DNA of 64,000 nt from Acidobacteriota bacterium (lineage in GTDB: Bacteria > Acidobacteriota > UBA6911 > RPQK01 > JAJDTT01). Numbering within the stretch: position 1 is the stretch's first letter; the number at the start of each line of letters is the position of its first letter. This document shows positions 1,117 to 63,356 of the stretch, one piece after another. The stretch is from contig OZ253580.1 in the NCBI GenBank assembly GCA_965263035.1, forward strand, positions 4,448,001 to 4,512,000. Direction: 5' to 3'. The notes below the pieces were generated by a model that ran no database searches, had not been told where the DNA came from, and saw nothing but the letters and a program-made list of their open reading frames with translations. A program made the translations under genes and the position numbers.

Positions 1117-4100
1117 TTGAAAAAACGGCCCGAGGTCGGTCTACTCGTCGCAATCGTCTGCCTCGCCGCAATCAGTGCTCCCGTCGCCGCGCAGCAGCAG
1201 TTCGGCGGTCTCCGTGTCCTCGTCACCGACCAGACCGGTAGCGTCATCCCCGGCGCCGAAGTCGAGTTCGGCGGCAAGGTGTTGATCCGGCCGGTCTTTG
1301 GGGTCTCCGACGATCACGGATTGGTGATCAGGAACAGCCTTCCACCCGGAAACTACACGGTAACCGTCCGATTCCCGGGGTTCCAGACTGCAGTGAATGA
1401 AGAAGTCGTCGTCCAGGCGGGACGGATTTTTTCGGTTGAGATAGCTCTCAAGGTCGGTCAACTCGACAGTACGATCGTCGTCGAGGCAGGCCAAGCGGCG
1501 ATCGATACGTTCAAGAGCGAGTCCGCGGCGACGTATGCCGGGCAAGGGATAACGGACGCCCCCGGCGGTCGAGACTTCAGCGACTACGCGCGCTTTACGC
1601 CGAGCGTCAACATCGAAGCCCAGGCGGGCAACGTGACCTACAGGGGACAGAGTGTCCGTGGCATCTCCGTCGACGGGTCCTCCGGCGCGGAGAACGTCTT
1701 CTACATCGACGGTGTCGATACCACGAGCATGTACAACGGGTTGAACAACCAGAATCTACGGGTCGAAACGGTGCAGGAGTTCCAGTTGAAGACGGCCGGG
1801 TACGAGGCCGAATTCGGCGGCGCCATGGGGGGCGTGCTCAGCATCCGGACCAAGAGCGGATCGAACGACTTTCACGGCAGCGTTCTGTGGTACGGGAGTG
1901 GAAGCGCCTTGGCGGGTGCGCCGAGCAAGCGTCTGCGCCTGGACCCGGCCCAGTCCGCCGACGTGGCCGAATACGTGTTCGACGCCGAAGACGATGAGGC
2001 GATCAACGAATTCGGCTTCACCTTGGGGGGGCCGATCTGGCGCGACCGCATCTGGTTCTTCGGGGCGCTCCTGCCGCAAATCCGAAACCGGACGCGCTCC
2101 GTCACCTTCACATCCGGGGAAACGGGCGATTTCAGACGCCAGGACCGGTTGCGCAGCACGACCGCCAAGATCGACTTCCAGCCTGCGGATAAAGTGAGAT
2201 TCATGACCTCGTACGTTTCGGACCGGTCGCGATGGAAGGGTGGATTGCCCGATCGCGACGGTACCTCCAACCCGAATTACGAGTGGGCGGAAGAAGGGTT
2301 CGAACATCCCGGCTACACGGTGACGGGAGCCCTGACCGTCACCCCGTCTCCGGTTTCGATCGTGGACGCCCGTTGGGGATTGAACGCCATCCAGACCGAA
2401 CAACTGCTGGGGCCGAACCAGGTCCGTCACCGGTTCCTCCAAACGCCGGGAGTGATCGGATATTCGCCGGACGACCCCCTGTATCGGCCACGCGACTTCT
2501 CCTCGATCGGACACTCGGCAAGCTACAATACCTCCCAGGATTTCCAGAAAAAGAGCACCATATCAGTCCGTGGTGAAAGTCCCGCGAGCACCGAGACCGG
2601 TCCTGCGCCCGCCGGACAAGGCGCGATGAGGGAGCATACCGGGAGTATGAGACCGAGTCGCAACGCAGTCCGCGCACGATGCAGGGAAGGTCGAATGCCG
2701 TGACGACTTTTGCCACGGGCTGATATCTCTGAGTGGGAGTTATCTGGCCACCCTGGCAGGCCAGCAGCATGAGGTGCGCGTCGGCTGGCAGTTCAATGGG
2801 CTCGCCCACGACGTCAACGACGCCTACAAGTTCGACTACATCCTGTACAACTACACCCGCCCCTACAACACCGTGGACGGGAACGTCCGGACCAGCACCT
2901 GCACGGGTCCGGACGGCGTCCGTTACGATCCTTGCGGTTATTACGAGCTGCGCACGCCGTTCGGCGTCGTGGCGAACGTCGTTACGCACCGCCATGCCCT
3001 TTTCTTCCAGGATGCCTGGACCATCAACGGTTCGCTCACCCTGAACCTCGGACTTCGCTTCGAGCACGAAGAGATCCCCTCCTTCAGCGATCTTCCGGAG
3101 TTTTCCGGAACGGTCTTCAAGTGGGGCTTCCTGGACAAGGCCGCGCCTCGTCTGGGCTTTGCCTATGACCCACTCGGTAACGCGAAGGTCAAGCTCTTCG
3201 GTAGTTGGGCCCGGTTCTACGACGCCATGAAACTCGAGATGGCCAACGGATCGTTCGGCGGGTTCAAATGGTTGAGCCATTACTACCTGATGGACGACAC
3301 CACGCTCGATTGGACCCGAATCGGAGGGCTGTCGGGACAAGGGGAATATCCTGGAACTTTCGTCGAGACCAGGAACTGGCGACTCCCGTCATTCGAGGAC
3401 CTGGACCCCGATCTGAAACCCATGCGGATGACGGGAGTCGTGGCCGGGGTCGAGTACGAGGCCGCGACGGACTATGTGGTTTCGGTCCGGTACACGCGAA
3501 AGAATCTGGATGAGGCGATCGAGGACGTCGGCCGGCAGACACCGGCGGGTGAGGCCTACTACATCACCAACCCGGGGCGCGGCCTTTCCGTCGACCGTTT
3601 CCTGGAAGCGGGACTGCCGGTTACCCCCCATCCCAAGCGAACCTACAACGCGGCCGAATTCCGCTTACGGAAATCCATCCGAGACCATTGGTTCGCGGAT
3701 GTCGCGTATGTGTATTCCCGGCTTTACGGCCTCTATTCAGGCTTGGGAAGCTCCGACGAGAACGGACGCCTCAGTCCGAACGTCGACCGCGATTTCGATC
3801 TCTGGTTCCTCAACTACGACTCCGCCGGCAACCTGATCGATGGACCGCTGGGCACCGACAGAACGCACCAGCTCAAGGTCAATTGGATGGTCCTCACTCC
3901 GTGGGACATGGCTGTGAGCGGTTTCTTCCGCGCCATGAGCGGAACGCCCGTCACCCGGACCGTCGATCTGGAACACGTGGACGTCATGGTGAACAACCGC
4001 GGCAGCGACGGACGAAACCCGTTCTGGACTCAGACGGACCTCTCACTGGTCCAGCGCTTCTACCCTTTCCCGGATGAAACCAGATCGTTCGAGATCAACT

Positions 4101-4333
4101 TCAACGTCATCAACCTCTTCAACCAGAAGACGGGCTTGCGGACATTCCGAAGCCTGTACCGCCAGTCCCTTCCCTTGTGGCAACCCGGCGATCCCGTCTC
4201 GCAAGTCCTGAACGGCTACGACTATCGCGCCATAGCCGCCTCCCAGGGCGCGACCCAGGATCCTCGCTTCCTGCAGCCGGACCGGTTCCTGGATCCAGTT
4301 GCGGCACGCTTCGGAGTTCGTTTCGTCTTCTGA
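1117..4333 (+). pseudogene. Oar-like TonB-dependent receptor with N-terminal carboxypeptidase-regulatory-like domain, frameshifted by a family A insertion
   Basis: ORFs 907..2703 and 2774..4333 are two halves: signal peptide from TTG 1117, plug motifs (ENVFYIDGVD, EFGGAMGGVLSIRTKSG), barrel ending RFVF. Removing 163 bp restores ...QKKST-I-SLSGSYLATLAGQQHEVRVGW... Confidence 0.9.
2563..2723 (+). mobile_element. Family A ERIC-like palindromic miniature element, copy A1 (161 bp, TA duplication)
   Basis: Terminal inverted repeats TCAGTCCGTGGTGAAAGTC / GACTTTTGCCACGGGCTGA, TA on both sides (2561-62, 2724-25), four other full copies in the window. Confidence 0.92.
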
Positions 4334-4337
4334 CCTG

Positions 4338-4498
4338 GGAGCCTGCGCGGCAGAAATTGATCTACTGCGAAAGCGGTAGAATCGGTCCATATTTCCCCGA
4401 TTTCTCGGCGAATAGAACAACTATGCACCTCCAAATCGAGAAAATCTGGCCTCGATTCCCCTCTTTCTCGCTACGATCATTCTTACCGCGCAGACTCT
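4338..4498. mobile_element. Family B palindromic miniature element, copy B1 (161 bp)
   Basis: Ends GGAGCCTGCGCGGCAGAAATTGATC / GATCATTCTTACCGCGCAGACTCT; near-identical to 11038-11198 and 51038-51198. Confidence 0.92.
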
Positions 4499-4563
4499 TA
4501 GTGTGTCCTCCGGTGTGAAATGCGGGCTGGAATGAGCAATTTTGGACGGAGCATGAAGGTCGC

Positions 4564-4710
4564 ATGACTTGTCCGCGCTGCCGCACCAAGATGACGGTCG
4601 CCGCCCATCGGCCTCACAAGCAAGAGAAGTGGCGCTGCCCCAAGTGCGGCAAGGTGCGGATGAAACCGGCCAGCTACCGCCGATCCAAGTACGGCAAACG
4701 AGAGGCCTGA
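4564..4710 (+). CDS. Small basic Zn-ribbon protein (48 aa)
   Basis: MTCPRCRTKMTVAAHRPHKQEKWRCPKCGKVRMKPASYRRSKYGKREA*; two CxxC knuckles; below the ORF-track length cutoff. Confidence 0.7.
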   Translation: MTCPRCRTKMTVAAHRPHKQEKWRCPKCGKVRMKPASYRRSKYGKREA

Positions 4711-4793
4711 GCGCCGGACGGCAGGCAAAAAAGCGGGTTCAGGCCCGTGGTCCATCGCGTCCGGCCGCCGAGGGCCTTGATCCGCTCCGCCCG

Positions 4794-6284
4794 CTATTTA
4801 ACTCCGGCGGCCAGCCACCGGATCGGTCGGGCGCAGATCAGGAACAGGGCCCCGGCCACGATCGAGGTGACGGCGACGCTGAAAAACAGCTCTTCAGCGG
4901 TCATGGTCTCGAGTCGGCCGGACATGAGCCCGGCGATGAGATTCCCCAGGGCGGCTCCCATGAACCAGGTTCCCATCATCTGCCCCACGAGACGCGTCGG
5001 CGAGAGCTTGGTGATGCTGCTCAACCCGACCGGGCTGAGGCAGAGTTCCCCCACGGTGTGAAAAAAGTAGGTCGTCACCAGCCACACGGGGCTCACCTTG
5101 CCCGCCGCGATGAATTGGGAGCCCCAGGCCATGACGAAAAAACCCGCTCCGAGCAGTACGAGCGCGAAGGCGAACTTGACTCCAAGCGACGGGTTCCTCG
5201 ACCCGAGACCGACCCACAGCATTCCCATCAAGGGCGCCAACAGGACGATGAACAGGGGATTGACCTGCTGCAGCCAACCGGCGGGAAACTCCCAGGAGAG
5301 GATCACCAGGTCGGTGTGTTCCTTGGCGAAGAGATTCATGCTGGATCCGGCCTGCTCGAAGCCGGACCAGAACAGCGCGGCTCCGATGAAGAGGACGAAG
5401 ATGAGGCCTACCCTCCGCCTCTCCAGGCTGTCTCTGCAGGCGAACAGGATGACGTAGCTGAAATAGAGGACGGCCAAGACCGAAATCGAAAGCGAGACGG
5501 TTCGGGCCACGGCCTCGACGGTGAGCGTCAGGAGCCCGGCCGAGGTCAGAGCGGCGAGAGCCAGTGCCGCGGCAGCCACCACTCCCAGACCCCTCAGGAA
5601 CTGGCCGCGAGACCGGGCCTGCGCCTGGAGACTGGACGCATCCCCCTTGAGTTCACCGGCCCCGTCCAGATGCCGCCGTCCCAGCACGTACTGCAGCACG
5701 GCGAAGGTCATGCCCACGCCGGCGGCGCCGAAACCCAGATGCCAATCCACCTTCTCGCCCAGGAACGAGCAGATCCCCGGCCCCAGGAAGGCTCCGACGT
5801 TGATTCCCATGTAGAAAATGGTGAAACCGGCGTCCCGCCGAGCGTCGTTTCCCGTATAGAGGTCTCCGACGATGGCGCTGACGTTGGGTTTCAACAGACC
5901 GGTGCCCAGGGCCACCAGGGCCAACCCCACGTAGAACGTGACCTCGGCCGGAATCGCCAGCGCATAGTGGCCGGCGGCGATGATGATGCCTCCCACCAGG
6001 ACGGCGCGGCGCTGGCCGATGAGCCGGTCCGCCACCCATCCTCCGGGGAGAGCCAGCGCGTAGACTCCGAAGGTATACAGACCGTAGATCGCGCCCGCCT
6101 CGGCCTTGCCCATGCCCATCCCTCCCCGGGCGCTGTCGATCATGAACAGGACCAGGAGGGCCCTCATTCCGTAGTAGCTGAAACGCTCCCACATCTCGGT
6201 GAAGAAGAGGGTCGAGAGCCCTCGGGGATGACCGAAAAAAGTCTGCGGCCGGCGATCGCCGCCGGGTGTCTGCGATGGGTCCAT
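4794..6284 (-). CDS. POT/PTR family proton-dependent oligopeptide transporter (DtpT-like)
   Basis: FFGHPRGL, EMWERFSYYGMR, GTGLLKPN and GELCLSPVGLS motifs; start uncertain (6284-6302). Confidence 0.93.
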   Translation of the reverse strand: MDPSQTPGGDRRPQTFFGHPRGLSTLFFTEMWERFSYYGMRALLVLFMIDSARGGMGMGKAEAGAIYGLYTFGVYALALPGGWVADRLIGQRRAVLVGGIIIAAGHYALAIPAEVTFYVGLALVALGTGLLKPNVSAIVGDLYTGNDARRDAGFTIFYMGINVGAFLGPGICSFLGEKVDWHLGFGAAGVGMTFAVLQYVLGRRHLDGAGELKGDASSLQAQARSRGQFLRGLGVVAAAALALAALTSAGLLTLTVEAVARTVSLSISVLAVLYFSYVILFACRDSLERRRVGLIFVLFIGAALFWSGFEQAGSSMNLFAKEHTDLVILSWEFPAGWLQQVNPLFIVLLAPLMGMLWVGLGSRNPSLGVKFAFALVLLGAGFFVMAWGSQFIAAGKVSPVWLVTTYFFHTVGELCLSPVGLSSITKLSPTRLVGQMMGTWFMGAALGNLIAGLMSGRLETMTAEELFFSVAVTSIVAGALFLICARPIRWLAAGVK

Positions 6285-6312
6285 GGAGACCTCCATACTC
6301 ACGTCTGCGGGA

Positions 6313-7272
6313 TCAGCGAACGGCGATGGGATTTCCCGGGGATCCGGTGGCTCCCTTCAGGCGAAGCGGGGAGAAGACGAAGGCGAACTCGTAGACCTTG
6401 TCCCGCGCCAACTCCTCCAGCGTGAGATTTTCCAGGTTGTAGATCCCGTGGCGCACCAGCATCCACTGATGCACCTCGAAGGGCCGGTCCGGATTCTCGT
6501 GCGGGACCACCTCGATGGCCCAGTTGTCGGCTCCGGTCAGGACCGTTTTCCGGCTGCTGAGCCAGCGGGCCGCCTCCATGCCGATTCCCGGCTCACCCGA
6601 GTTGTACAGGTCGTTGTCCCGCATCCACAGCTTCTCGTGTCCGGTGCGGATCAGGACCGCGTCCCCTTCTCGGACTTCCACGCCCTGTTTCTTCAGAGCT
6701 CCCTGCAGGTCGTCTGCGGTGATGACGTATCCCGGCTGCAGTCGGTCCACGCCCTTGAATGAGGCCACGTCGATGAGGACCCCGCGGGTAAAGAAGACGC
6801 CCACGTTCTCTACGCCCAGCTTCGTGAGCCCGTAGGGAGTGGCGAACCGGGACCGCTTGAAACCGTTATAGAAGTAGTCGTCGTCGGCCAGTCGAACTCC
6901 GACATGGCCGAGTCCGTCGAACTGAGTTCCGACCTGACCGATCTCGCCGCTGAACATCTCGTCGAAACCCACGAGCCCGTTCGATCCGGTCGGGTCGCCC
7001 GAAGTGGGAGATCCTGGGATCGTGAGCTTGAAATGCCGCTTGCCCGCCAGCGGCATCCCTTCCTGGTAGACCTGACCCAGCGAGTAGATCTTGCCGGTGC
7101 GGATGAGCCGGCTGGCTTCCAGGACTTTGGCCGGGGTGATCCGGTTGGCGGCGCCGCGTTGATCCGCGGTGCCCCACTCGGAAGGCCACCAGCGGGAGCC
7201 GATGGGTGTCTCCTGGGGCCAGGCAACCGACTGCATGGACCAGCAGAGCGCTATGAACCCGATGAGCCTCAT
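6313..7272 (-). CDS. Secreted cyclase/kynurenine-formamidase family metallohydrolase
   Basis: QVGTQFDGLGH, RGVLID, GATGSPGNPIA motifs; signal peptide MRLIGFIALCW... Confidence 0.88.
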   Translation of the reverse strand: MRLIGFIALCWSMQSVAWPQETPIGSRWWPSEWGTADQRGAANRITPAKVLEASRLIRTGKIYSLGQVYQEGMPLAGKRHFKLTIPGSPTSGDPTGSNGLVGFDEMFSGEIGQVGTQFDGLGHVGVRLADDDYFYNGFKRSRFATPYGLTKLGVENVGVFFTRGVLIDVASFKGVDRLQPGYVITADDLQGALKKQGVEVREGDAVLIRTGHEKLWMRDNDLYNSGEPGIGMEAARWLSSRKTVLTGADNWAIEVVPHENPDRPFEVHQWMLVRHGIYNLENLTLEELARDKVYEFAFVFSPLRLKGATGSPGNPIAVR

Positions 7273-7309
7273 GGTTTGTCTCTCCCTCGTGTCATGGCCG
7301 GCTTCCGAA

Positions 7310-8425
7310 TCAATTCGTTTCCGTCGGCTCGGAGAGACCGGCATTCAGGGCCGGAACCACTTCCCGAGCCAGGAGTTCCACACTCCGGATCCAGCTCTCC
7401 TTGTCGTCCCAGTCGTGGGCTACCAGGATCAGAGTCCCAAAGCCGCCGACTTCGTCTCTCAACTCCCGGAGCATCTGCGTGACCCGGGACGAATCCCCCG
7501 CGATCACCACCTCGTCCAGGAAATAGTCCAGATTGCAATCGGCGTCGCTCATGGACGGATCCCGTTTCCAGATTCCCACGCCGGGACCCCTCCGGGTCAG
7601 CTCCAGAATGTATTCGATGCATTTCCCCATGGAGTTGCCGGCGGCCAACCGGCGAGCTTCTTCGGTCGTTTCGGCCACAAACACGTTGCGGGAGACTCTC
7701 CAGTCGCTGATCCGTGCCCGGCGGCCGTGTTGGCGAGCGCCCGATTCGTAGGTCGACCAGTGGTTCCGCAAGGTGTCTGTCGACACCATGTGGTGGCTGA
7801 TGGGAAGAAAACCACGGCCGGCCGCTTTCTGGACGCCGACCGAGTCGCGGCTGATGCACGGGACCATAATGGGCGGGTGGGGCCGCTGCAGCGGTCGGTG
7901 CAGGACGCCGACGCCCATTTCGGGGTCGATTTGCTCGGAAAGGCGGAAATCCCAGAACTTCCCATGGAACTCGATGGGCGGGTCCTGGCTCCAGATTCTC
8001 AAGATGGCCTCGATGGCTTCGGAAACCAGACCGCCGGATTGCCGGGGATCGACGCCGTAGATCTCCATATCGCTGGGAATCGCTCCGGGACCGAAGCAGA
8101 GATTGAGGCGCCCGTGGGACAGGTGATCCAGAAAGGCCAGGCGCGAGGCGACGTGTGCCGGGTGGTGGTATTGGAGGCAGACCGGCGCCGGTCCGATCCG
8201 GATCCGGGAGGTCATTCCCAGCGCCTTGCCGATGAAGATCTCGGGCATGACGATGTTCTCCACGCTGGAGGAATGATGTTCTCCTACCCAGAACTCGGAA
8301 AATCCCAGCTCCTCGCATCGCACGACCAGTTCAAGGTCCTCGTCGAAGCATTGGGCCAGAGGCTTATCCGGATCGTGCACGGGCATGAGGAACATCCCCA
8401 GCTTGAGGGATGGCTGATGGGGCAT
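7310..8425 (-). CDS. LLM (luciferase-like) flavin-dependent monooxygenase
   Basis: LGMFLMP, ELGFSEFWVGEHH, LDHLSHGRL motifs; start at MPHQPS chosen by domain boundary. Confidence 0.9.
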   Translation of the reverse strand: MPHQPSLKLGMFLMPVHDPDKPLAQCFDEDLELVVRCEELGFSEFWVGEHHSSSVENIVMPEIFIGKALGMTSRIRIGPAPVCLQYHHPAHVASRLAFLDHLSHGRLNLCFGPGAIPSDMEIYGVDPRQSGGLVSEAIEAILRIWSQDPPIEFHGKFWDFRLSEQIDPEMGVGVLHRPLQRPHPPIMVPCISRDSVGVQKAAGRGFLPISHHMVSTDTLRNHWSTYESGARQHGRRARISDWRVSRNVFVAETTEEARRLAAGNSMGKCIEYILELTRRGPGVGIWKRDPSMSDADCNLDYFLDEVVIAGDSSRVTQMLRELRDEVGGFGTLILVAHDWDDKESWIRSVELLAREVVPALNAGLSEPTETN

Positions 8426-8652
8426 GGCGGGATCCTTTCCTGAATCGGGGCTCGTCATGGGCCTGGTCCTCGTGTCGCCAATCAGGATGGGCGCGATCGG
8501 GGGCAGAGTCAACGAGCCCCTCCAGGTCCCGAGTTGCACCTCGACCTTGGGAACGAATAACATTATGCAAGGTTTCCGAAGAGACAAGATAGCCTTGTCC
8601 CGGGTGGAAGCGAGTTCGGCGCCGCGACCGGCAGTGGCACAAGCGTGATGCG

Positions 8653-9747
8653 ATGATGTGGCACCTGATTCTCTCCAATCTCCGCCAGCGGCCGACCCGC
8701 ACCTGCGTCAACATCATGGCCGTTTGCCTGGGAGTGGTTCTGGTTCTGGTCTGCGTCGGACTCTCCTACGGCCAGTTGCTGGATCAGGCGCAACGGACCC
8801 GCCGTATCGGAGGGGACTTCATGCTCCAGCCTCCGGACGCCTCCTTTTTCCTGGCGCTCAACAGCGGCGCCATGGACGTCAGGATCGGACGCGTCATCGA
8901 TAAGGTGGATGGGGTCGAGGCCTCGACTCCGATCATGGTCAAGGTTGTCAGCAGGAACTTCTTCGCGGTTTACGGCGTGGACGCGTCCAGCTTTCAGAAT
9001 GTCAACGACGGGCTGAGGTTCGTCCAAGGCCGGTTTTTCGAGTCAGGGGACGAAGCCATCGTCGACGAACTCTTCGCCTCCAACAATCAGATGGACGTCG
9101 GACAGGACGTCGATCTCCTGGGGCACCGGTTCAAGATCACCGGGATCTTCCAGAGGGGAACCGCCGGCCGGGCCATGATTCCCCTCGAGACCATGCAGAA
9201 GATCAACGGAACTCCGGGCAAGTGCTCGGTCTTCTTCATCCGGGCTGAGGATGGGAAGCCCCACGATCAGGTTCGAACGGCGCTGGACACCCGTTTCGAG
9301 AATTACAGGGTCACAGCTACCGAAAATCTGGAACAACTCTTCACTACGACCACACCCGTTTTCCGCGAATTCCTCCTGGTGATCGTCGCGCTGGCCGTGG
9401 CCATGAGTTTCCTGGTGACGCTCACGGCCACTTACAGCACCATCGTGGAGAGGACCCGGGAGATCGGCATCCTCAAATCTCTTGGCGCCTCCAAGTCCTA
9501 TATCGTCCGCCTCTTTCTCGAGGAATCCCTGCTGGTCTCGGTGTTGGGCCTGATCTCCGGTTTCATCCTGACCTGGGGAGTCCTCAGCCTGATTGCCGTC
9601 AAGTTCCCCTCCTTGCCGGTGATTATCCAGCCCTACTGGAGAGTGGCGGTGGTGGGGATTTCGATGGGCGGAACCGTGTTGGGAGCCCTCTACCCGGCGT
9701 GGAAGGCCGCCAAGCTGGACCCGGTCACGGCTCTCGGTTACGAGTAG
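8653..9747 (+). CDS. MacB/FtsX-type ABC transporter permease
   Basis: ERTREIGILKSLGA and YPAWKAAKLDPVTALGYE signatures; periplasmic core; no ATPase adjacent. Confidence 0.92.
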   Translation: MMWHLILSNLRQRPTRTCVNIMAVCLGVVLVLVCVGLSYGQLLDQAQRTRRIGGDFMLQPPDASFFLALNSGAMDVRIGRVIDKVDGVEASTPIMVKVVSRNFFAVYGVDASSFQNVNDGLRFVQGRFFESGDEAIVDELFASNNQMDVGQDVDLLGHRFKITGIFQRGTAGRAMIPLETMQKINGTPGKCSVFFIRAEDGKPHDQVRTALDTRFENYRVTATENLEQLFTTTTPVFREFLLVIVALAVAMSFLVTLTATYSTIVERTREIGILKSLGASKSYIVRLFLEESLLVSVLGLISGFILTWGVLSLIAVKFPSLPVIIQPYWRVAVVGISMGGTVLGALYPAWKAAKLDPVTALGYE

Positions 9748-9823
9748 CGCCCCTTCATCGGGGAACACCGCCCGCCTCGGATGGTTCTCCCCAGCTTTGA
9801 GAAACAGCCGCCGAACAGATCCG

Positions 9824-10984
9824 TCAAATCAATTCGGTTTCGACGTCCCGAGCCGGACTGGCTGAGTAGCGGCAGGCAATCTCGTCTACGATCCGGACCA
9901 TCCGCTCATGGTGCTCCTCCATGGATTCCACCACTTTGAACTGGGCACGGCAGCGATCCAGGTTCTGGCCCTCCCGGTGGACCTTGAAATAGACGTCCCC
10001 TTCCAAATGGTCGGTGAGGAAGCGGAGTCCCAACTCGTAAGCGATGAGCTTTCCCGAGAAGGGGAGATATTGTCGCTCCACAGGAGTGAGGAAGCCGACG
10101 GTCTCCGAAAGGTACCCGCGAGCGAGAGCCTTGAAGTGAGGCAACTCGACACCCACTCTCGAGAGGTCGCGCTCGTCTTCCTGATGGGTTCCGCAGCCGC
10201 TGCGCATCAGGTCTCCGAAATCATGATCGGACAGGCCGGGCATGACCGTGTCCAGGTCGATGACGCAAAGCATCTTGCCGGTCATCGCGTCCAAGAGGAC
10301 GTTGTTGATCTTGGAGTCGTTGTGAGTGACCCTCTCGGGTAGCCGTCCCTGTTCCCGCAGGCGGGGCAGGACCCGGATCAGCCGCTTGGAGGAGTGGGCG
10401 AAGCGGATCTGCTCCTGGACTTCCCGGGCTCGATTGCAAGGGTCCCGGTCGAGCGCCGAAAGGAACTGCCGGTAACGGTGCTCCGTATCGTGGAAGCCGG
10501 GTATGGTTTCGACGAGGCGCGGGGACGGTAGATCCAGGAGAAGTTTCTGGAAACGCCCGAAGGCGCGACCTGCTTCATAGGCGATCCGGGGAGAGGTGAC
10601 GGTGTCGAAGATCGAGGCGCCCTCGACGAAGTCGTAGGTGCGCCAGTAATTTCCCTCGGCATCTCGATGGAAGCTGGACCCGTCGTTTGTCGGCACCAGA
10701 GACAGGGAGCGGCGCCCCACATCCTCAGCTCCCGCCTGCCGCAGCTTGTGCTCGAGATGCCGGGTGACCCTTACAATGTTCTTCATCAGGGCGGGCGGGT
10801 TCCGGAAGACTCTCTGGTTGATCCGCTGGTGAACGTAGCGTTTCCACCGGCCGCGATGCCAATAGCTGGCCAGGTAGGTGTCATTGATGTGGCCGTTCCC
10901 ATAGGGATGGATCCGGACCAGGTCGCCGCGCACAGAAAAACAAGAGCTGACGGCCGCGAGATCACCTTGGTGCTGCCGGTTCAT
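9824..10984 (-). CDS. Phosphotransferase (APH superfamily, N-acetylhexosamine 1-kinase-like)
   Basis: GNGHINDTY, HNDSKINN, IDLDTVMPG, RFLTDHLEGDVYF motifs; the N-terminal extension in the ORF track lies in element B2. Confidence 0.85.
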   Translation of the reverse strand: MNRQHQGDLAAVSSCFSVRGDLVRIHPYGNGHINDTYLASYWHRGRWKRYVHQRINQRVFRNPPALMKNIVRVTRHLEHKLRQAGAEDVGRRSLSLVPTNDGSSFHRDAEGNYWRTYDFVEGASIFDTVTSPRIAYEAGRAFGRFQKLLLDLPSPRLVETIPGFHDTEHRYRQFLSALDRDPCNRAREVQEQIRFAHSSKRLIRVLPRLREQGRLPERVTHNDSKINNVLLDAMTGKMLCVIDLDTVMPGLSDHDFGDLMRSGCGTHQEDERDLSRVGVELPHFKALARGYLSETVGFLTPVERQYLPFSGKLIAYELGLRFLTDHLEGDVYFKVHREGQNLDRCRAQFKVVESMEEHHERMVRIVDEIACRYSASPARDVETELI

Positions 10985-11037
10985 TCCTGCGCCTTTCATG
11001 AGAGGCCGCGGCAATCGCCATGAATTCGGGGATTCCA

Positions 11038-11198
11038 GGAGCCTGCGCCGCAGAAATTGATCTACTGCGAAAGCGGTAGAATCGGTCCATATTTCCCCGA
11101 TTTCTCGGCGAATAGAACAACTATGCACCTCAAAATCGAGAAAATCTGGCCTCGATTCCCCACTTTCTCGCTACGATCATTTCTACCGCGCAGACTCC
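11038..11198. mobile_element. Family B miniature element, copy B2 (161 bp)
   Basis: GGAGCCTGCG...CGCAGACTCC followed by TAG; near-identical to B1 and B3. Confidence 0.92.
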
Positions 11199-11226
11199 TA
11201 GCGCTGACGATCCTGAAGGCATGGGC

Positions 11227-11420
11227 GAGAGAGAGGAAAGAGAAAAGAGGGGAGAGGAAAGAGAGAGGAGAGGTGTTCGCACAACGGGGAAGAGCGCGAG
11301 AAAACGATCTGGCCGGGTACGCTCAGGCAAGCCTGGCTCGACGCCCTGTTTCTCCAATGACTTCGCTGGCTGCAGGCAAGTAGGAGACCTTCCGTCTTCA
11401 CTCTTTCCTCTTTCCTTCCT
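11227..11420. repeat. 47-nt all-purine heptamer tract (GAGGAAA-like) with a complementary pyrimidine tract at 11401-11420
   Basis: gagagagaggaaagagaaaagaggggagaggaaagagagaggagagg and ctctttcctctttccttcct read directly. Confidence 0.7.
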
Positions 11421-12871
11421 CACAAGGGATAGACACGGCGGCCCAGCCGCTCGTATTTGAGGGCGTCCGGACTGTGCACTCCCGGCTCCGATACGGCCTG
11501 GATCTGACCGGCCCATGCTTCGAAGCCAGCCCGGAAGTGCGCAGCCGATTTCAAGCCGATGTATCGCATTTGCCTGGGATCGAGCCCCAAAGTCAGCGAA
11601 AAGGCGGTGTCGAAGGGCTGCTCCCGGACACTGACCAGCAGCACGTGGACGCCGTCGACTCGGATCCGGGCCGAGACTCCCATATTTCCACGGAGACCGG
11701 CGTACATGGGACCGTTGTAGGCGAATGCTCCGTCAGAAACAGCTTCGACTACGGCCTCCACGGGGACCGGCGGCCCCTGTCTGGGCGTCGATTTCCCGCC
11801 AACCTGGAGCGATACGGTGGCGCCGACACCGGCGCGATGACAAGCCAGCACGGATTCGTGATCCACGATGTAGAGGATGCAGGCATCCTTGAGCCCAGAG
11901 TCCAGAAAGGTTCTGAGCATGCCGGTGCTGTCCCCCGGAGAACCGCCGCCCGTATTGTCGTTTCTGTCCGCGAAGACCGCGGGATATCGGCCCAACATCT
12001 CCGCCTTGGCCAGGGCTTCCCGGGTCGAGGGGAGATGCTGTTGCCAATCGGCCCGGCGGCGATAGATCCACGCCGCCAGTTCGTCGGCGTGGCGTTGAGC
12101 CGAGGCGCGGTCGTTGTCCGTGACCACGTGTACCGAGGCCCCCACGTGGGGTGCGTCAGCCAAGGGAAAACAGGTGGCGATGGATGCGGCCACGACGCCC
12201 GGTTCGGCCTCCAATCGGTGCAGGCGCTCGATGGCTTCGCTCATGGGCGGGTGTGCGGTCACCTGGTTCAGACCCCAGAACATGGGGATCTGGGACAGGG
12301 CCATGGTGGGACGGAGACCGTCCCTGACGATCCGGACCATCACGTCAGCGCACTCCCGGCCCCGCGCCGCCATGTCCACCTCGGGGTAGGTTTCTCGTCC
12401 GATGAGGGCGTCGGCCAGTTCGACCATGCGGTGCGAGACGTTGGAGTGGATGTCCAACTGTCCGACGATGGGAACCTCCGGGCCCACCAGATCTCGAACC
12501 GCCGCCAGGATGTAGGCCTCGCCGTCGTCGATGCCTTCGGCCACCATGGAGCCGTGGAGCTCCAGCAGGATCCCGTCCGCCGGAGACGCGGCCTTCATCA
12601 GACCCAACATCCGGTCCAGGAGGCGGTCCAGGTCTCGCCTGGGGACGGGGCCGCTGGGATGGGCTTCGGCGAAAATGGTAGGCACCAGCTCGAAGCCGTG
12701 TGCTTCAGCCGCCTCGATGAAACCGCCGGTGGGAATGTTGACACCCCGAAACGCCGGGATGATCTGGTCGGGTTGAAGCTCCCCGAATCTCTCGCTGAAG
12801 CTCTGCATGGTGGTGGGAATGGGAGTGAAGGTGCTGGTTTCGTGGCTGATGGTGCCGCTGAGGATCTTCAT
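11420..12871 (-). CDS. M81 family metallopeptidase (MlrC-like)
   Basis: ISHETSTF, LELHGSM, LDIHSN, TYPEVDM, DNTGGGSPGD, KSAAHFRA motifs. Confidence 0.92.
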   Translation of the reverse strand: MKILSGTISHETSTFTPIPTTMQSFSERFGELQPDQIIPAFRGVNIPTGGFIEAAEAHGFELVPTIFAEAHPSGPVPRRDLDRLLDRMLGLMKAASPADGILLELHGSMVAEGIDDGEAYILAAVRDLVGPEVPIVGQLDIHSNVSHRMVELADALIGRETYPEVDMAARGRECADVMVRIVRDGLRPTMALSQIPMFWGLNQVTAHPPMSEAIERLHRLEAEPGVVAASIATCFPLADAPHVGASVHVVTDNDRASAQRHADELAAWIYRRRADWQQHLPSTREALAKAEMLGRYPAVFADRNDNTGGGSPGDSTGMLRTFLDSGLKDACILYIVDHESVLACHRAGVGATVSLQVGGKSTPRQGPPVPVEAVVEAVSDGAFAYNGPMYAGLRGNMGVSARIRVDGVHVLLVSVREQPFDTAFSLTLGLDPRQMRYIGLKSAAHFRAGFEAWAGQIQAVSEPGVHSPDALKYERLGRRVYPL

Positions 12872-13011
12872 CGGATCAGTCTCCACTCATGCCGTGATCT
12901 GTCCGCGGCCGATCGGAATACCCTGGTTCCGCGTGCGATCTGTAAATTCAAGATCATCATTCCATAAAGGTCTGATAGACACGGCCGGCCTGAATCGGCG
13001 AGGTGTCGGAT

Positions 13012-13036
13012 TGTGACGACTTTTACCACGGACTGG
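13012..13036 (+). repeat. Family A right-end remnant
   Basis: TGTGACGACTTTTACCACGGACTGG followed by TA matches the family A terminal repeat. Confidence 0.75.
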
Positions 13037-13048
13037 TAAACTCCAGGA

Positions 13049-13822: not shown

Positions 13823-13833
13823 CGTCTGCCCGT

Positions 13834-14589: not shown

Positions 14590-14697
14590 CGGGATCCGGC
14601 CTCCGTTGTGGCAGGGCGCCAAGTCTCTCACACTTTTCCCGAGCCCACATGCGCGTTGGCGACAGGGATGGAGCGGTTCTTTGGTACACTCCGGAGC

Positions 14698-16362
14698 ATG
14701 ATTCGATCCGCACGTGGATTCGGTTTCCCGGTGCCGGCCTTGATTCTGCTTGCCCTCGCGGCCGGAAGCATGCGGGGTCAGGATGGGCCCACCGGTGCGG
14801 ACTGGCCCCACTATGGCGGGAGCTACCAATTCTGGCGCTACAGCACCCTGGACCAGGTGAATCAGAAGACGGTGAAGAGACTGGTTCCGGTCTGGGCCTT
14901 CCAGACCGGAATCGTGGACGGCGGACTTCAGGCCACCCCCATCGTTCTGGACGGAGTCATGTATCTGACCTCGTCCTGGAACCGCGTCTTCGCCATCGAC
15001 GCCGCGACTGGCGAGGAGATCTGGCACTACTACTACGAGAACCCCCGGCAGATCGGGGTCATCTACAGCCCCTGGAACCGCGGCGTCGCGGTCTCGGGGC
15101 CGCGCGTCTTCATGGGGACTCTCGACAACCATGTCGTGGCCCTGGATCGGAAGACGGGCCGCGAGTTGTGGAAGGTCAACGTCGAGGATCTGAGACAGTG
15201 CGGCTGCAACATCACCGGGGCGCCGCTTGTGGTGAAGGACAAAGTGATCGTCGGCGTCACCGGGGGGGATTCGGCTCACCGGGGCTATCTGACCGCCTTC
15301 GACGCAGCCACCGGACGCCTGGCTTGGCGTTTCTACACCATCCCCGGTCCCGGAGAGAAGGGGCACGAGACTTGGGAAGGAGACAGCTGGACGTACGGAG
15401 GCGGAGCGACCTGGATGACCGGTTCCTACGATCCCCAGTTGGACCTCCTCTACTGGGGAGTGGGAAATCCGGCGGCCGACTTCTACGGGGGAGACCGGCG
15501 GGGAAGCAACCTGTACACCGACTCCGTCATCGCCTTGGATCCGGACACGGGAGAGCTCAAGTGGTACCACCAGCAGATCCCCCACGACGTGTGGGACTGG
15601 GACGCAGCCTACGAGTGCGTGCTGCTGGATCTGAAAGTGAATGGGAGAGACCGGAAGCTCCTCCTGAACACCAACAAAGGGGGCTACACCTACGTGGTGG
15701 ATCGGACCACCGGAGAGTTCATCTCAGCCTGGCCGGTCGTGGAACATCTGAATTGGATCGAAGGGGTGGGTCCGAACGGTGAACTGATCGGCCGCAATGA
15801 GCCGGTTCTGGACCAGGCCAAACTGATCTGCCCTTCCATCGGCGGTGGCAGGCAGTGGAACCAGGGCGCCTATTCTCCGCGCACCGGGTGGTACTACACG
15901 ACCGGCATCGAATGGTGTCAGGAGGTGACGGCCCGGGAGGAGGAGCCTCAGGAGGGGATGAACTTTTTTGGAGGCGTCTTCGAGTTGAAGGCGACGCCGG
16001 AAGTCGACCATCATGGACATCTGGACGCCTACGATCCGCTGACGGGGAAGAAGCACTGGAGCTACCGGTCCCCTTATCCCTTTCTGGCTTCACAGCTGGC
16101 CACGGCCGGGGACCTGATTTTCAGCGGTGACGCGGAGGGTCTCTTCTTCGCCCTGGACGCCATGACGGGACGGAAGCTGTGGAGCTTTCAGACCGGGTCG
16201 GGGCACCGGGGCTCGGCCATCACCTACTCGGTGGCGGGACGCCAGTTTATCGCCACCCCGTCCGGCTGGGGGTCGGCGGTGGCCGGCATTCTGCCCCAGC
16301 TCTGGCCCGAGACGGAGGATTTTCGGGCCGGGTCCACACTCTTCGTCTTCGCCCTGCCTTAA
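14698..16362 (+). CDS. PQQ-dependent dehydrogenase (alcohol/sugar type, beta-propeller), secreted
   Basis: DWPHYGG, QATPIV, YWGVGNP, HDVWDWD, CPSIGGG motifs and Trp-docking repeats. Confidence 0.92.
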   Translation: MIRSARGFGFPVPALILLALAAGSMRGQDGPTGADWPHYGGSYQFWRYSTLDQVNQKTVKRLVPVWAFQTGIVDGGLQATPIVLDGVMYLTSSWNRVFAIDAATGEEIWHYYYENPRQIGVIYSPWNRGVAVSGPRVFMGTLDNHVVALDRKTGRELWKVNVEDLRQCGCNITGAPLVVKDKVIVGVTGGDSAHRGYLTAFDAATGRLAWRFYTIPGPGEKGHETWEGDSWTYGGGATWMTGSYDPQLDLLYWGVGNPAADFYGGDRRGSNLYTDSVIALDPDTGELKWYHQQIPHDVWDWDAAYECVLLDLKVNGRDRKLLLNTNKGGYTYVVDRTTGEFISAWPVVEHLNWIEGVGPNGELIGRNEPVLDQAKLICPSIGGGRQWNQGAYSPRTGWYYTTGIEWCQEVTAREEEPQEGMNFFGGVFELKATPEVDHHGHLDAYDPLTGKKHWSYRSPYPFLASQLATAGDLIFSGDAEGLFFALDAMTGRKLWSFQTGSGHRGSAITYSVAGRQFIATPSGWGSAVAGILPQLWPETEDFRAGSTLFVFALP

Positions 16363-16522
16363 CAGCCCGTGGTAAAAGCCGCCGCGGCATTCGACCGTCC
16401 TTGCATCGTGCGCGGAATGCGTTGCGACTCGGTCACATACCCCCGGCATACTCCCTCATCGCGCCTTGTCCGGTGGGCGCTGGAACGGTCTCGGTGCTAG
16501 CGGGACTTTCACCACGGACTGT
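16362..16522 (-). mobile_element. Family A element, copy A2 (161 bp, TA duplication)
   Basis: ACAGCCCGTGGTAAAAG...CTTTCACCACGGACTGT, TA at 16360-61 and 16523-24; reverse orientation to A1. Confidence 0.9.
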
Positions 16523-16600
16523 TAACCCACGTTTCTGCCCAGGGAGCGTGATTATCACGCAGGACCGGTGAGGGCGCGCCAACTGCCGGCGGGCTACCTA

Positions 16601-16614
16601 GGAGTCTGCGCGGT
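16601..16614. repeat. Family B terminal remnant
   Basis: CCTA|GGAGTCTGCGCGGT matches the family B end and its CTAG-type flank; short. Confidence 0.55.
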
Positions 16615-16699
16615 GAACACTCCGGTCTATTCAGGTCCCGACTCAGCGCTCAATCCGAGCGGCGCGCCGGGGCCCCTAAAGCAGCTTGTTCCGCACCCA

Positions 16700-23871: not shown

Positions 23872-23945
23872 TGGGCCCAGTAGGACTCGAACCTACGACC
23901 ACCTGATTATGAGTCAGACGCTCTAACCGACTGAGCTATGGGCCC
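23872..23945 (-). tRNA. tRNA with CAT anticodon, most likely tRNA-Ile2 (lysidine-modified)
   Basis: GGGCCCATAGCTCAGTCGGTTAGAGCGTCTGACT-CAT-AATCAGGTGGTCGTAGGTTCGAGTCCTACTGGGCCCA folds to a cloverleaf; paired G1-C72 argues against fMet; CCA not encoded. Confidence 0.92.
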
Positions 23946-45330: not shown

Positions 45331-45376
45331 ACAGCCCGTGGCAACAGTCGTCACGGCATGCGACCGTCCCTGCATC
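45331..45376 (-). repeat. Family A terminal remnant
   Basis: TA|ACAGCCCGTGGCAACAGTCGTCACGGCATGCGACCGTCCCTGCATC matches the first ~46 nt of A2/A4. Confidence 0.85.
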
Positions 45377-49502: not shown

Positions 49503-51038
49503 ATGTCGACACCCCCCGTGGTCCTTCTGGCCGTCCTGGATGGTTGGGGATGGCGAGACGGTCGGGAAGGGAATGCCATCGCCCAGGCCCGACTCCCCAA
49601 CATGGAGAGTCTCTACTCGCGCTACGCCTGGACCCGCTTGGCGGCCAGTGGCGGACGTGTCGGCCTGCCCCAGGGCCAGATGGGTAACAGCGAGGTCGGC
49701 CATTTGAATCTGGGGGCCGGACGGATTGTCCCGCAGGATCTGACCCGAATCGATCGAGCCATAGAAACAGGGCGGTTCGACGGCAACTCGAGCCTGCGAT
49801 CCGTTATGGAAAGGGCTCGCCACACGGCGCTTCACCTGATCGGGCTGGTTTCGGACGGTGGAGTGCACAGCCACATCCGCCACCTGCTGGCGTTGCTGCG
49901 GCTGGCCCGGAACGAGCATGTCGAGAAGGTGTGGATCCACGCGATCCTGGATGGGAGGGACGCGAGTCCCAGCGGCGGAGTGCAATTTCTGGAACAGTTG
50001 CAGGCAGAAACCAGGAAACTGGGAACGGGAGGATTGGCTTCGGTCGGCGGCCGCTACTACGCCATGGATCGCGACAACCGTTGGGACCGGGTGGAAAAGG
50101 CCTACCGATGTATGGTCGAGGGTCGAGGAGGACGAGGCTGGCGGAATCCGATTCAGGGTGTGGAGGAGTCGTATCGAAACGGGGTCTACGATGAGTTCGT
50201 GGACCCATTTTCGGTTGTGGATTCACTCGGCCGTCCGATGGGCTCGATCGATCCCGATCATGCGGCCATTTTCTTCAACTTCCGTGCCGACCGGGCTCGC
50301 CAACTCACACACTCACTGACGGGAGTCGATTTCCGGGCCTTTCCCCGGAGCCGGGAGCCCATGGCTCACTTTCTCACGATGACCCAGTATCGGCTCGACT
50401 GGGCGCTGCCGGCGGCCTTCCGTTACGTTCCCGTTCAGCACACGCTGGCCCAGCTCTTGAGTTCCCACGGCGTTTCCAATCTGCGGCTGGCGGAGACGGA
50501 AAAATACGCTCACGTCACCTATTTCTTCAACGGGGGGGCAGAGGACCCTCCGGCAGGCGAGACGAGGGTTCTGATTCCGTCTCCGAAGGTGGCCACGTAC
50601 GATCTCCAACCCTGGATGAGCGCCGCCGAGATCACGAATCGCTTGCTTTACGAGTTGGAGCGCGGCGTCTTTCCGGCCATGGTGGTCAATTTTGCCAACG
50701 CCGACATGGTGGGACACACGGGAGACCTGGCGGCCACCGTCCAGGCGGTAGAGGCGGTGGACTCCTGCCTTGGCCGAATCTACCGAAAGATCCGGAAAAC
50801 CGGGGGCGTCATGGCGGTCACGGCAGACCATGGGAATGCCGAGTTGATGGTGGATGCGAAGACAGGTCAGCCCCATACGGCTCACACCAGTCACCCGGTG
50901 CCGTTCATTCTGGTCGATCCTCAAAACCGGCCAGCGTTGAGGTCGGGAGGAGCTCTGGAGGATGTGGCCCCCACGCTGCTGCAATATCTGGACTTGCCGC
51001 AGCCGGAGGAAATGACCGGCCGATCCCTGTTGATCTAG
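49503..51038 (+). CDS. gpmI: 2,3-BPG-independent phosphoglycerate mutase
   Basis: LDGWG, MGNSEVGH, GRYYAMDRD, ETEKYAHVT, DMVGHTG, TADHGNAE. Confidence 0.98.
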   Translation: MSTPPVVLLAVLDGWGWRDGREGNAIAQARLPNMESLYSRYAWTRLAASGGRVGLPQGQMGNSEVGHLNLGAGRIVPQDLTRIDRAIETGRFDGNSSLRSVMERARHTALHLIGLVSDGGVHSHIRHLLALLRLARNEHVEKVWIHAILDGRDASPSGGVQFLEQLQAETRKLGTGGLASVGGRYYAMDRDNRWDRVEKAYRCMVEGRGGRGWRNPIQGVEESYRNGVYDEFVDPFSVVDSLGRPMGSIDPDHAAIFFNFRADRARQLTHSLTGVDFRAFPRSREPMAHFLTMTQYRLDWALPAAFRYVPVQHTLAQLLSSHGVSNLRLAETEKYAHVTYFFNGGAEDPPAGETRVLIPSPKVATYDLQPWMSAAEITNRLLYELERGVFPAMVVNFANADMVGHTGDLAATVQAVEAVDSCLGRIYRKIRKTGGVMAVTADHGNAELMVDAKTGQPHTAHTSHPVPFILVDPQNRPALRSGGALEDVAPTLLQYLDLPQPEEMTGRSLLI

Positions 51039-51198
51039 GAGCCTGCGCCGCAGAAATTGAGCTACTGCGAAAGCGGTAGAATCGGTCCATATTTCCCCGA
51101 TTTCTCGGCGAATAGAACAACTATGCACCTCCAAATCGAGAAAATCCGGCCTCGATTCCCCACTTTCTCGCTACGATCATTGCTACCGCGCAGACTCC
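51038..51198. mobile_element. Family B element, copy B3 (161 bp)
   Basis: CTA|GGAGCCTGCG...CGCAGACTCC; its first base completes the gpmI TAG. Confidence 0.92.
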
Positions 51199-52338: not shown

Positions 52339-52436
52339 GGAGTCTGCGCGGTAGAAATGATCGTAGCGAGAAAGCGGGGAAATATGGACCGATTCTACCG
52401 CTTTCGCAGTAGATCAATTTCTGCCGCGCAGGCTCC
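52339..52436. mobile_element. Family B element, copy B4: inverted, 63-bp internal deletion (98 bp)
   Basis: Both ends intact in reverse orientation; the deletion falls between the internal direct repeats TTCCCCnnTTTCTCG. Confidence 0.88.
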
Positions 52437-54357: not shown

Positions 54358-54518
54358 CAGTCCGTGGCAAAAGTCCCGCGTAGCACCGAAACCGGGGCTG
54401 CGCCCGCCGGACAAGGCGCGTAGAGGGAGCATACCGGGAGTATGCGACCGAGACGCAACGCAGTCCGCGCACGATGCAGACCCGGTCGAATGCCGTGACG
54501 ACTTTTTCCACTGGCTGG
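54357..54518 (+). mobile_element. Family A element, copy A3 (162 bp, TA duplication)
   Basis: TA|GCAGTCCGTGGCAAAAGTC...GACTTTTTCCACTGGCTGG|TA. Confidence 0.9.
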
Positions 54519-55392: not shown

Positions 55393-55554
55393 GCGGACCG
55401 TGGTAAAAGTCGTCACGGCATTCGACCGTCCCTGCATCGTGCGCGGACTGCGTTGCTATCGGCTCGCATACTCCCGGTATGCTCCCTCCGTTGCGCCTGG
55501 TCCGGCGGGCGCAGGAACGGTTTCGGTGCTCGCGGGACTTTCGCCACGGACTGC
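55393..55554 (-). mobile_element. Family A element, copy A4 (162 bp, eroded flanks)
   Basis: Reverse-oriented close match to A5; lies between rmlA and rmlB. Confidence 0.88.
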
Positions 55555-59257: not shown

Positions 59258-59258
59258 C

Positions 59259-59743: not shown

Positions 59744-59756
59744 GGTCCGTGTCGGC

Positions 59757-60343: not shown

Positions 60344-60396
60344 TTTTCGCTACGGATAGCAAAAATGACATCACGATTTACTATCCATAGTAAATC
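60344..60396. promoter_or_regulatory. Pair of operator-like palindromes
   Basis: Perfect GATTTACTAT-CC-ATAGTAAATC (60375-60396) and related TTTTCGCTACGGATAGCAAAA (60344-60364). Confidence 0.55.
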
Positions 60397-61354: not shown

Positions 61355-61355
61355 G

Positions 61356-62414: not shown

Positions 62415-62456
62415 CTCTTCTTCTTGCCGGCGGCCTCTCCTGGCGAGCAGTGTGGG

Positions 62457-63095
62457 CTAGCCGATCAGTGCTTTCCCCTCCAGTTCGGCCAGCAGTTTTT
62501 CCAGAGTCTCTTGTGGATTCCCGGAAGCGTCAACCAGCGAGATCCGATCCGGATCCCGCTGTGCCAGCAGTCGATAACCCTCTCGGACCCGCCGGTGGAA
62601 CCGCATGGTTTCGGCTTCGAAGCGGCCCCAAACCTGATTGCCCTCGACGGCATTCCTCCTGCGGGCGCGCGCCAACCCGGATTCCACCCCCAGATCCAGG
62701 ATCAGAGTCAGATCGGGCATGCGGATCCGGAGAGGGCGGGCCAGCTCATCGACCAGGGAGAACCCGATGCCGCGGGCATACCCCTGGTAGGCTAGCGTCG
62801 CGGCGTGGTAGCGATCGCAGAGGACCGTTCGTCCCTGTTGGAGCGCCGGTTCGATCACCTCCGCCAGATGTTGGAACCGGTCCGCCAAGTACAGCAGAAG
62901 TTCGGCCTCGGCCTCCCGGCTGGGTCCTTTGGATTCCAGAAGGATGCGGCGCAGTCGGGATCCGAAGGGAGTCCCGCCCGGCTCCCGGGTCACGACGATC
63001 GGGATATTGCGTCTCTTGAACTCCTCGGACAGCAGCTGCAGCTGCAGCGTCTTTCCCGATCCCTCGATGCCTTCGAGTGCAATGAATCGGCCCAC
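62457..63095 (-). CDS. tmk: Thymidylate kinase
   Basis: FIALEGIEGSGKT, TREPGG, CDRY, AYQG; GTG start at 63095. Confidence 0.96.
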   Translation of the reverse strand: MGRFIALEGIEGSGKTLQLQLLSEEFKRRNIPIVVTREPGGTPFGSRLRRILLESKGPSREAEAELLLYLADRFQHLAEVIEPALQQGRTVLCDRYHAATLAYQGYARGIGFSLVDELARPLRIRMPDLTLILDLGVESGLARARRRNAVEGNQVWGRFEAETMRFHRRVREGYRLLAQRDPDRISLVDASGNPQETLEKLLAELEGKALIG

Positions 63096-63194
63096 AGGGC
63101 CTCCGCCGATGCCGAGAAGCACGCCCTCCACCTCGTCCTGAAACAAGGGTTGGTCATAGTACCATATGATTCGGTGGGTGAAGCTTGTGGAATA

Positions 63195-63356
63195 TCAGTC
63201 CGTGGTGAAAGTCCCGCGAGCACCGAGACCGTTCCTGCGCCCGCCGGACCAGGCGCAACGGAGGGAGCAGACCGGGAGTATGTGAGCCGATAGCAACGCA
63301 GTCCGCGCACGATGCGGGGACGGTCGAATGCCGCGACGACTTTTGCCACGGGCTGA
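63195..63356 (+). mobile_element. Family A element, copy A5 (162 bp, TA duplication)
   Basis: TA|TCAGTCCGTGGTGAAAGTC...GACTTTTGCCACGGGCTGA|TA in the divergent tmk/yggS intergenic region. Confidence 0.92.

Follow-up and report, generated by a model that had tools for sequence, protein, structure and literature searches.

Two apparently separate IS1182-type miniature element families with strand-specific folds in an Acidobacteriota genome

[quoted passage not shown] MITEs of 160 and 169 bp belonging to ISMac2, an insertion sequence (IS) of the IS1182 family, have been described in Methanosarcina acetivorans, where, as far as the excerpted article goes, they possess inverted repeats of 25–26 bp and occur in 14 and 7 copies, and the 160-bp family carries a 4-bp direct repeat (PMC3852290). 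In the Bacillus cereus group, the mobile repeat bcr1 of about 155 bp is described, in the portion at hand, as transcribed and as bearing compensatory changes which preserve its RNA-level structure (PMC3184786), while the staphylococcal IS1272, another member of the IS1182 family, is reported in the extract consulted to replace target stem-loops and to leave no duplication (PMC5678879). The present analysis concerns two families of miniature elements, A and B, in a 64,000-nucleotide (nt) stretch of DNA from an Acidobacteriota bacterium (contig OZ253580.1, positions 4,448,001–4,512,000 of the forward strand; hereafter the window). An original prediction, made from the letters of the window, had proposed that the two families share length, central hairpin and strand polarity and may be served by one mobilisation or recognition system.

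The best explanation as a whole, to which we assign a probability of roughly 0.8, is that A and B are two IS1182-type MITE families with separate ISs, and that one strand of each rod is kept paired. Both families are putatively non-coding, whole-length imperfect palindromes of about 161 bp bearing the ends of two different IS1182-type ISs. Each transposase would recognise the terminal repeats of its own MITE in double-stranded form and move the element in trans. In the lineages from which copies arise, good pairing would be preserved on one strand per rod (plus in A, minus in B), while inserted copies would decay neutrally. This suggests that selection acts during element propagation on a form with a single strand, be it RNA or a DNA intermediate.

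Partner insertion sequences and target duplications

The genome searched is one contig of 6.198 Mb, in which BLAST with one window copy per family as the query (at least 80% identity) retrieved 156 full-length copies of A and 163 of B. The two consensuses are both 161 nt long, in agreement with the predicted 161–162 bp; 154 of the 163 B copies have this length, and the A core (CAG..CTG) spans 158–161 nt in 146 of 154 copies. Identity of the copies to their own consensus is 93.0% for A and 98.05% for B. Both families are imperfect palindromes over their whole length and fold into one rod closed by an apical loop of 5 nt, and their terminal inverted repeats are CAGTCCGTGGTGAAAGTC / GACTTTTGCCACGGGCTG in A and GGAGCCTGCGCCGCAG / CTACCGCGCAGACTCC in B. 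The features by which MITEs are recognised, namely size and copy number, inverted repeats, target duplication and a transposase-encoding element with matching ends, were all found.

The partners were found by masking every A and B copy and then searching for solo ends, while a pair-spacing search for long copies with the same ends gave no recurrent length. The partner of B, here called IS-B, is a 1.6-kb element outside the window (genome 203086–204686), whose ends read TA followed by GGAGCCTGCGC... and TA followed by GGAGTCTGCGCCGTAGAAA..., and the terminal 20 nt or so of B are the IS-B ends. It carries TA flanks and, at genome 203299–204624, an intact transposase gene of 441 amino acids, and is potentially autonomous; against NF033551, which models the IS1182 family with a cut-off of 270, its protein reaches 363.3 bits. 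Genome 5705599–5706932 holds a further copy with 81% identity. A scan with one genome per species gave 589 relatives of IS-B among 600 candidate stretches, of which the best 80 were analysed. These best 80 share 70–83% amino acid identity and come from records titled Acidobacteriota, Vicinamibacterales, Terriglobia, Gamma-/Alphaproteobacteria, Binatia and Latescibacterota, and 43 of their loci possess the exact TA+GGAGNCTGCGCCGYAG on both ends. Position 5 of the ends varies within these 43 loci (T/T 29, T/C 7, C/C 6, C/T 1). The T·G pair at 5:157 that the original prediction had noted is indeed present in both families; since position 5 is polymorphic in the IS-B clade, this "wobble" site is an ordinary polymorphism there.

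The A-type IS is represented in this genome by relics only, comprising three deleted copies of about 765 bp (genome 2099105–2099871, near 2919613 and near 5669960) and one frameshifted copy of 1.07 kb (151695–152766), all outside the window. These relics end in TA-G-CAGCCCGTGGCAAAAGTCC and retain the N-terminal DUF772 region; the outermost 20 bp or so of A correspond to the inverted repeats of this IS. Sister species hold a full-length A-type IS of about 1.48 kb with the ends CAGCCCGTGGCAAAAGTCC and open frames of 447–467 amino acids, the sister genus holds a more distant A-type IS, and the N-terminal piece of the A-type IS is matched in 13 of 21 genomes. Longer elements with the same ends around an open reading frame, to which the original prediction had looked, therefore exist for both families, intact in this genome for B and full-length in sister species for A. 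As a separate observation, from about residue 330 onwards the 447–467-amino-acid frames (L133 502–1857, minus strand, and similar sister-species loci) seem to depart from the frame that is canonical for the C-terminus (…GGLRRIF.RGH.NVRKRLL…), with a shared frameshift, programmed frameshifting and an error of assembly as possible causes.

B insertions have the layout CTA-GGAG...CTCC-TAG, with the left CTA in 100 and the right TAG in 88 of 163 copies. TA is duplicated at three nested insertions of B in A, two of which are independent and lie in opposite orientations at the same TA at the hairpin apex of an A subfamily. As for A, 76 of 154 copies have the same 4 nt on the left as on the right, and since some of these flanks are non-palindromic (ATAG, CTAA), its duplication is probably 4 bp, NTAN; the elements of about 1.48 kb have exact 4-bp flanks at five of the six loci examined. 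Target duplications are thus shown to be TA-centred, as TA within CTAG in B and as NTAN in A. Every insertion regenerates a CTAG-like target at its flanks, and full copies abut with exactly one shared TA in seven pairs (0.25 expected by chance), six of them A–B, which fits ordinary transposon behaviour.

A and B are very probably MITEs of IS1182-type elements. The view that such elements have no established mobiliser has to be given up, as both families carry IS1182-type IS ends and TA-centred duplications; with a partner IS identified for each, two probable mobilisers can be named. The older A lacks an autonomous partner in this genome and the younger B keeps one, so that age fits partner state.

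Two other mobilisers were considered and rejected. IS630, suggested by the TA duplication, has different ends in this genome (TA followed by GTACCCC... and TA followed by GTGTAGTGTCC...), while an IS200/IS605-type system (PATEs, REPINs), which would lack inverted terminal repeats and a duplication and insert with a replication-strand bias, does not fit the inverted repeats and duplication present here or the replication-strand split (73/83 in A, 94/69 in B). The genome is rich in ISs, with 22 matches to IS630-type DDE_3 and 70 to DDE_Tnp_1, and IS630 elements of two groups, 1225 bp and 1156 bp in length, target CTAG, some directly beside B ends.

Resemblance between the families, distribution and size variants

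The original prediction held that one trans-acting factor reads a shared central hairpin (GAGG..GCATA-loop-TAT..CCGAG) of fixed geometry and mobilises both A and B. The central strings it quoted do exist (two of two window hits against 0 of 100 shuffles for that 30-mer), and the 5-nt loops lie at positions 78–82 in A (plus strand) and 79–83 in B (minus strand). The same-position apical loop would favour such a factor, as would the equal length of 161 nt and the GAGG...CCGA segment, which in the fold of both families is a tandem 5'-GA/5'-GA (G·A/A·G) mismatch just below the loop, with two G-C pairs (GG/CC) next to it; moreover, GAGG and the 3' GA are retained in all four B lineages compared. 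The original prediction also pointed to a possible likeness to the centres of ERIC and Rickettsia RPE elements. A loop at mid-position, however, follows in both cases from two whole-length palindromes of equal length.

The similarity itself lies within the range of shuffled sequences. Local alignment of the consensuses in either orientation scores 16, against a dinucleotide-shuffle mean of 16.8, and this score is reached by 1427 of 2000 shuffles; under softer scoring the observed value is reached in 467 of 1000. A test of the central 32 nt alone, with hairpin-like shuffles (n = 5000) and an approximate pairing register, gives P = 0.16. The motif also varies among relatives. B elements of other genera have TCGAA, CCGAA or CAGAG in place of the CCGAG of this genome, and read GCGCATAG, GCTCATAG or GCGAATAG in place of GTGCATAG. 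An A subfamily of sister species reads TCGG-GTGCATA...TATGTGCCCGAA, where TCGG-GTG...GCCCGAA replaces GAGG-GAG...GACCGAG, and it has spread despite the standard pairs which take the place of the G·A mismatches. The central similarity of A and B is no better than chance, and the centre is unconserved within either family; the claim of a shared motif is unsupported.

The two families also differ in partner and taxonomic range. Compared with each other, the two transposases are 30% identical over 114 amino acids (E 2e-8). B is present in all eight own-genus and all six sister-genus genomes, and clearly so, at 86–99% identity and always at 160–162 nt, in a further three families of the order, while A is present in all eight own-genus genomes and in none of the six of the sister genus. 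A search of five sister-genus genomes for A-type ends spaced 145–175 bp apart gave no match in any of the five. The unpublished genome G016 contributes weak matches to these tallies, and no claim is based on it. The sister genus has B and lacks A, and B therefore lives without A; together with the distance between the transposases, this speaks against a common trans-acting factor.

The same-length argument stands for the two consensuses but not for a fixed geometry, as B-type ends also bound elements of 41, 50, 111 and 119 nt. B derivatives of 41 nt lie at eight loci of this genome, and B-type-end elements of about 31, 50 and 111 nt occur in two other genomes in which the IS-B clade is present. 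A third small family of 119 nt, found in seven regions (e.g. genome 4009604–4009722), has an AT-rich interior and B-like ends, CTAG followed by GAGGCTGTCCGAGAA. For A, there are eight loci with 58-nt derivatives devoid of the centre, all eight beginning with G-CAGTCC. The mini-elements were rejected as proof of a dispensable centre, since slippage at short direct repeats (TCTAC; CAGTCCG) could also generate the B forms of 41 nt and the A forms of 58 nt in situ, and the uniform G before CAGTCC in the eight mini-A loci is the sole point favouring true mobility of the mini forms. On these grounds, namely a similarity within shuffle range, an A subfamily that spread with an altered centre, size variants of both families, and different partners and ranges, a single factor reading both centres is very improbable. 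Equal length and a look-alike centre are best read as a coincidence between two rod-shaped palindromes.

Descent of both families from one ancestral MITE, with ends that co-diverged with the two IS1182-type transposases and with length, polarity and centre inherited, would account for the resemblance differently. The ends of A and B are similar at positions 3–8 only (AGTCYG / CRGGCT), a global alignment that includes these ends is marginal (its score is reached in 59 of 1000 shuffles), and the transposases are distant homologues. The interiors, in contrast, have no significant similarity, A was found in its own genus only while B ranges across several families of the order, and position 5, one of the similar end positions, is itself polymorphic within the IS-B clade. 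Such common ancestry is improbable, and two separate families remain the preferred reading.

Two further kinds of repeat were observed. In the loci L216–L226 (G042, G044), a B-end mini-hairpin of about 31 nt is followed by a conserved segment of about 55 nt, GGGTTGGTTGGGCGGCAA...GGGCTAG, and direct repeats of the end motif lie 85 nt apart at several loci. About 100 short regions and 21 others (e.g. genome 3925691–3925745 and 3570321–3570373) are REP-like GC-rich hairpins (GGCGAC-AAGAAA-GTCGCC; GGGGACAAGAATGTCC) which are unrelated to A and B.

A fold specific to one strand

For the A consensus, the fold energy is -96.8 kcal/mol for the plus strand and -76.8 kcal/mol for the minus strand, and the B consensus folds at -88.8 kcal/mol on the minus strand and -57.7 kcal/mol on the plus strand. 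The favoured strand (plus in A, minus in B) gives the better fold in 155 of 156 A copies and in all 163 B copies. Where the two arms differ, this strand has 8 G·U and 2 A·C in A, compared with 7 G·U and 0 A·C in B; the other mismatches consist largely of G·A or G·G, which on the opposite strand are C·T or C·C. Folding an alignment of 34 B copies from 15 genomes gave -83.2 kcal/mol with 63 pairs, compared with -38.2 kcal/mol and 44 pairs on the other strand; its pairs form series, for example UA 25 / UG 6 / CG 3 and GC 19 / GU 7 / AU 7, with non-standard states nearly always confined to single sequences. The interior pairs of 53 A copies, taken from nine genomes, change from GC to UA (28/20), from AU to CG (25/19) and from CG to UA (44/7). 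Cells changed on both sides number 118 in A (47.0 ± 5.8 in shuffles) and 15 in B (4.7 ± 2.0), values reached by none of 500 shuffles. The proposal that a single-stranded fold is read therefore survives in part: strand asymmetry, the use of G·U and G·A instead of A·C, and compensatory changes bear out a strand-specific fold, but without the common factor, the shared motif and the fixed geometry that had been attached to it.

The position of inserted copies bears on a possible role in the host. The favoured strand is sense/antisense to flanking tandem genes in 33/31 cases for A and 51/40 for B, according to crude gene calls (reading frame plus GC content at third codon positions), and copies fall into tandem, convergent and divergent gaps in the same proportions as the background. 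By replication strand, copies divide 73/83 in A and 94/69 in B (p = 0.06 for B). In A, private mutations are roughly strand-symmetric, with 40 C>T and 53 G>A (p = 0.60). Inserted copies thus look neutral, and the lack of orientation bias together with the near-symmetric private mutations places the constraint on the copy-producing lineages and not on the copies. The alternative that the rods are kept as host RNA elements, acting as terminators or as stabilisers or destabilisers of mRNA as ERIC and Correia elements are described to do, draws on the strand-specific fold and on the statement, in the part of the review available, that known bacterial MITEs yield long stem-loop transcripts affecting neighbouring mRNAs (PMC2229807). 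It is quite improbable given the unbiased orientation and the background-like gap types; in addition, private mutations of A create G·U and A·C about equally, and neither a sigma-70-like promoter nor a terminator-like U-tail was found inside the copies scanned (window 2400–4700 and 10800–11400). Four RNA-library runs covering window 2001–17000 consist of assembled contigs that carry no strand or level information; in X15, the RNA depth summed over the repeats is about 2,500–5,200, equal to some 160 copies at flank depth, DNA carry-over is possible, and nothing follows from this value.

Several points weigh against the explanation that we prefer. No intact A partner was found in this genome, and the 451-amino-acid A-type protein has IS1182 as its best family with 158.2 bits, below the cut-off of 270, in a frame that looks frameshifted near the C-terminus. 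That both families are exactly 161 nt long is a coincidence hard to quantify, and IS1182-type MITEs may have a mild size preference in view of the 160- and 169-bp ISMac2 MITEs in the excerpt available (PMC3852290). As to the fold, the shuffle controls on arm covariation overstate significance, given the common descent of the copies; recognition of the double-stranded repeats would by itself produce covariation in the outer helix; a concerted multi-base change of both arms, GTTCC/GGGAC to GGGGC/GACCC, is more like template switching than stepwise selection; and private changes of B on the favoured strand show a mild excess of C>T (37, against 32 G>A; expected fraction 0.39, p = 0.018).

The last two of these points also speak for a mutational origin of strand asymmetry and covariation, for instance through quasi-palindrome template switching or strand-biased deamination in master copies, with no selection on a single strand. 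Template switching, however, yields perfect complements, whereas here a single strand alone has G·U or G·A, the private spectrum of A is symmetric, and the purine–purine mismatches would require a second, different bias. By manual reading of the B pair table, about 13 pairs have a G·U state in at least 3 sequences, while none has A·C in at least 3. A purely mutational origin is accordingly unlikely, and the evidence leans towards a strand-specific fold that is selected and is not a mutational by-product.

As a tentative suggestion, the propagation of IS1182-type MITEs may depend on a strand-specific single-stranded rod, either folded DNA or an RNA of fixed polarity. A single DNA strand folded during transposition could join the two ends of an element too short to loop, and only those lineages whose pairing on that one strand tolerates G·U and G·A would go on making copies. 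RNA and single-stranded DNA are indistinguishable by sequence here, since in either molecule the mildest mismatches are G·U/G·T and G·A.

Copies in the window and comparison with known systems

The window contains five full copies and one fragment of A, and three full copies and one deleted copy of B. The A copy at 2564..2722 (plus strand) has the core CAGTCC...GGGCTG with flanks TAT / ATA and is 98% identical to the A consensus, while those at 16362..16522 (minus) and 63196..63355 (plus) reach 92.5% and 93.8%, respectively. The copy at 54358..54517 (plus) belongs to the GGGGC/GACCC subfamily and folds as a single rod (-73.6 kcal/mol, z -3.3), another full copy lies at 55398..55553 (minus), and a 46-nt right-end fragment is located at 45331..45376 (minus). 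The full copies of B are all on the plus strand, at 4338..4497 (GGAGCCTGCGC...GCGCAGACTC), 11038..11198 and 51038..51198, and the minus strand of the second is a single rod (-88.6 kcal/mol, z -10.5). The deleted B derivative at 52339..52436 (minus) is about 98 nt long and retains only consensus positions 1–70 and 119–161, owing to an internal deletion.

No Rfam match to A or B was obtained over the whole window at gathering scores, nor at E up to 1 over window 2500–4560, which holds one A and one B copy. A transfer RNA gene at window 23872–23945 (minus) is the sole Rfam match in the window at gathering scores. Window 46293–46379 and 46722–46808 form a direct repeat within coding sequence (74% identity, 429 bp apart), which looks like two tandem paralogous small genes.

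A common recognition system for A and B is unsupported, and no new one is needed, as both families have putative mobilisers of an ordinary, identifiable kind; they are two separate IS1182-type MITE families, a kind of element already in print. No published description of A or B was found at the level of titles and abstract openings, which is a weak negative. What merits the attention of specialists is that two independent MITE families with no genomic orientation bias are each optimised to fold on one strand only. If this strand bias does reflect the handling of very short elements by IS1182-type transposases, it would offer new insight into a poorly studied IS family, and rod-dependent propagation, if true, would provide a mechanistic link to the known attraction of the IS1182 family to stem-loop DNA. 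With about 320 copies, mini-derivatives and nested insertions, the genus is a good natural data set for MITE dynamics.

A and B resemble the bacterial MITEs of the review, in the part available, in size, inverted repeats, TA, copy number and long stem-loop, a likeness of description, and differ from them in that their partner ISs are identified as IS1182-type (PMC2229807). With the ISMac2 MITEs, again compared by description and from an excerpt, they have in common an IS1182-family partner, size, inverted repeats and a 4-bp repeat, while the ISMac2 MITEs differ in their archaeal host and in their 14 and 7 copies, against about 160 each for A and B (PMC3852290). Small size and compensatory changes are shared with bcr1, which, according to the accessible portion of its description, is cruciform-like with two stem-loops and 5-bp direct repeats and has been shown to be transcribed, whereas A and B are known from sequence (PMC3184786). 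IS1272, as far as its account was available, belongs to the same IS family as the partners of A and B and is likewise linked in its biology to inverted-repeat or stem-loop DNA; unlike IS1272, A and B duplicate a TA-centred target and are themselves the palindrome (PMC5678879).

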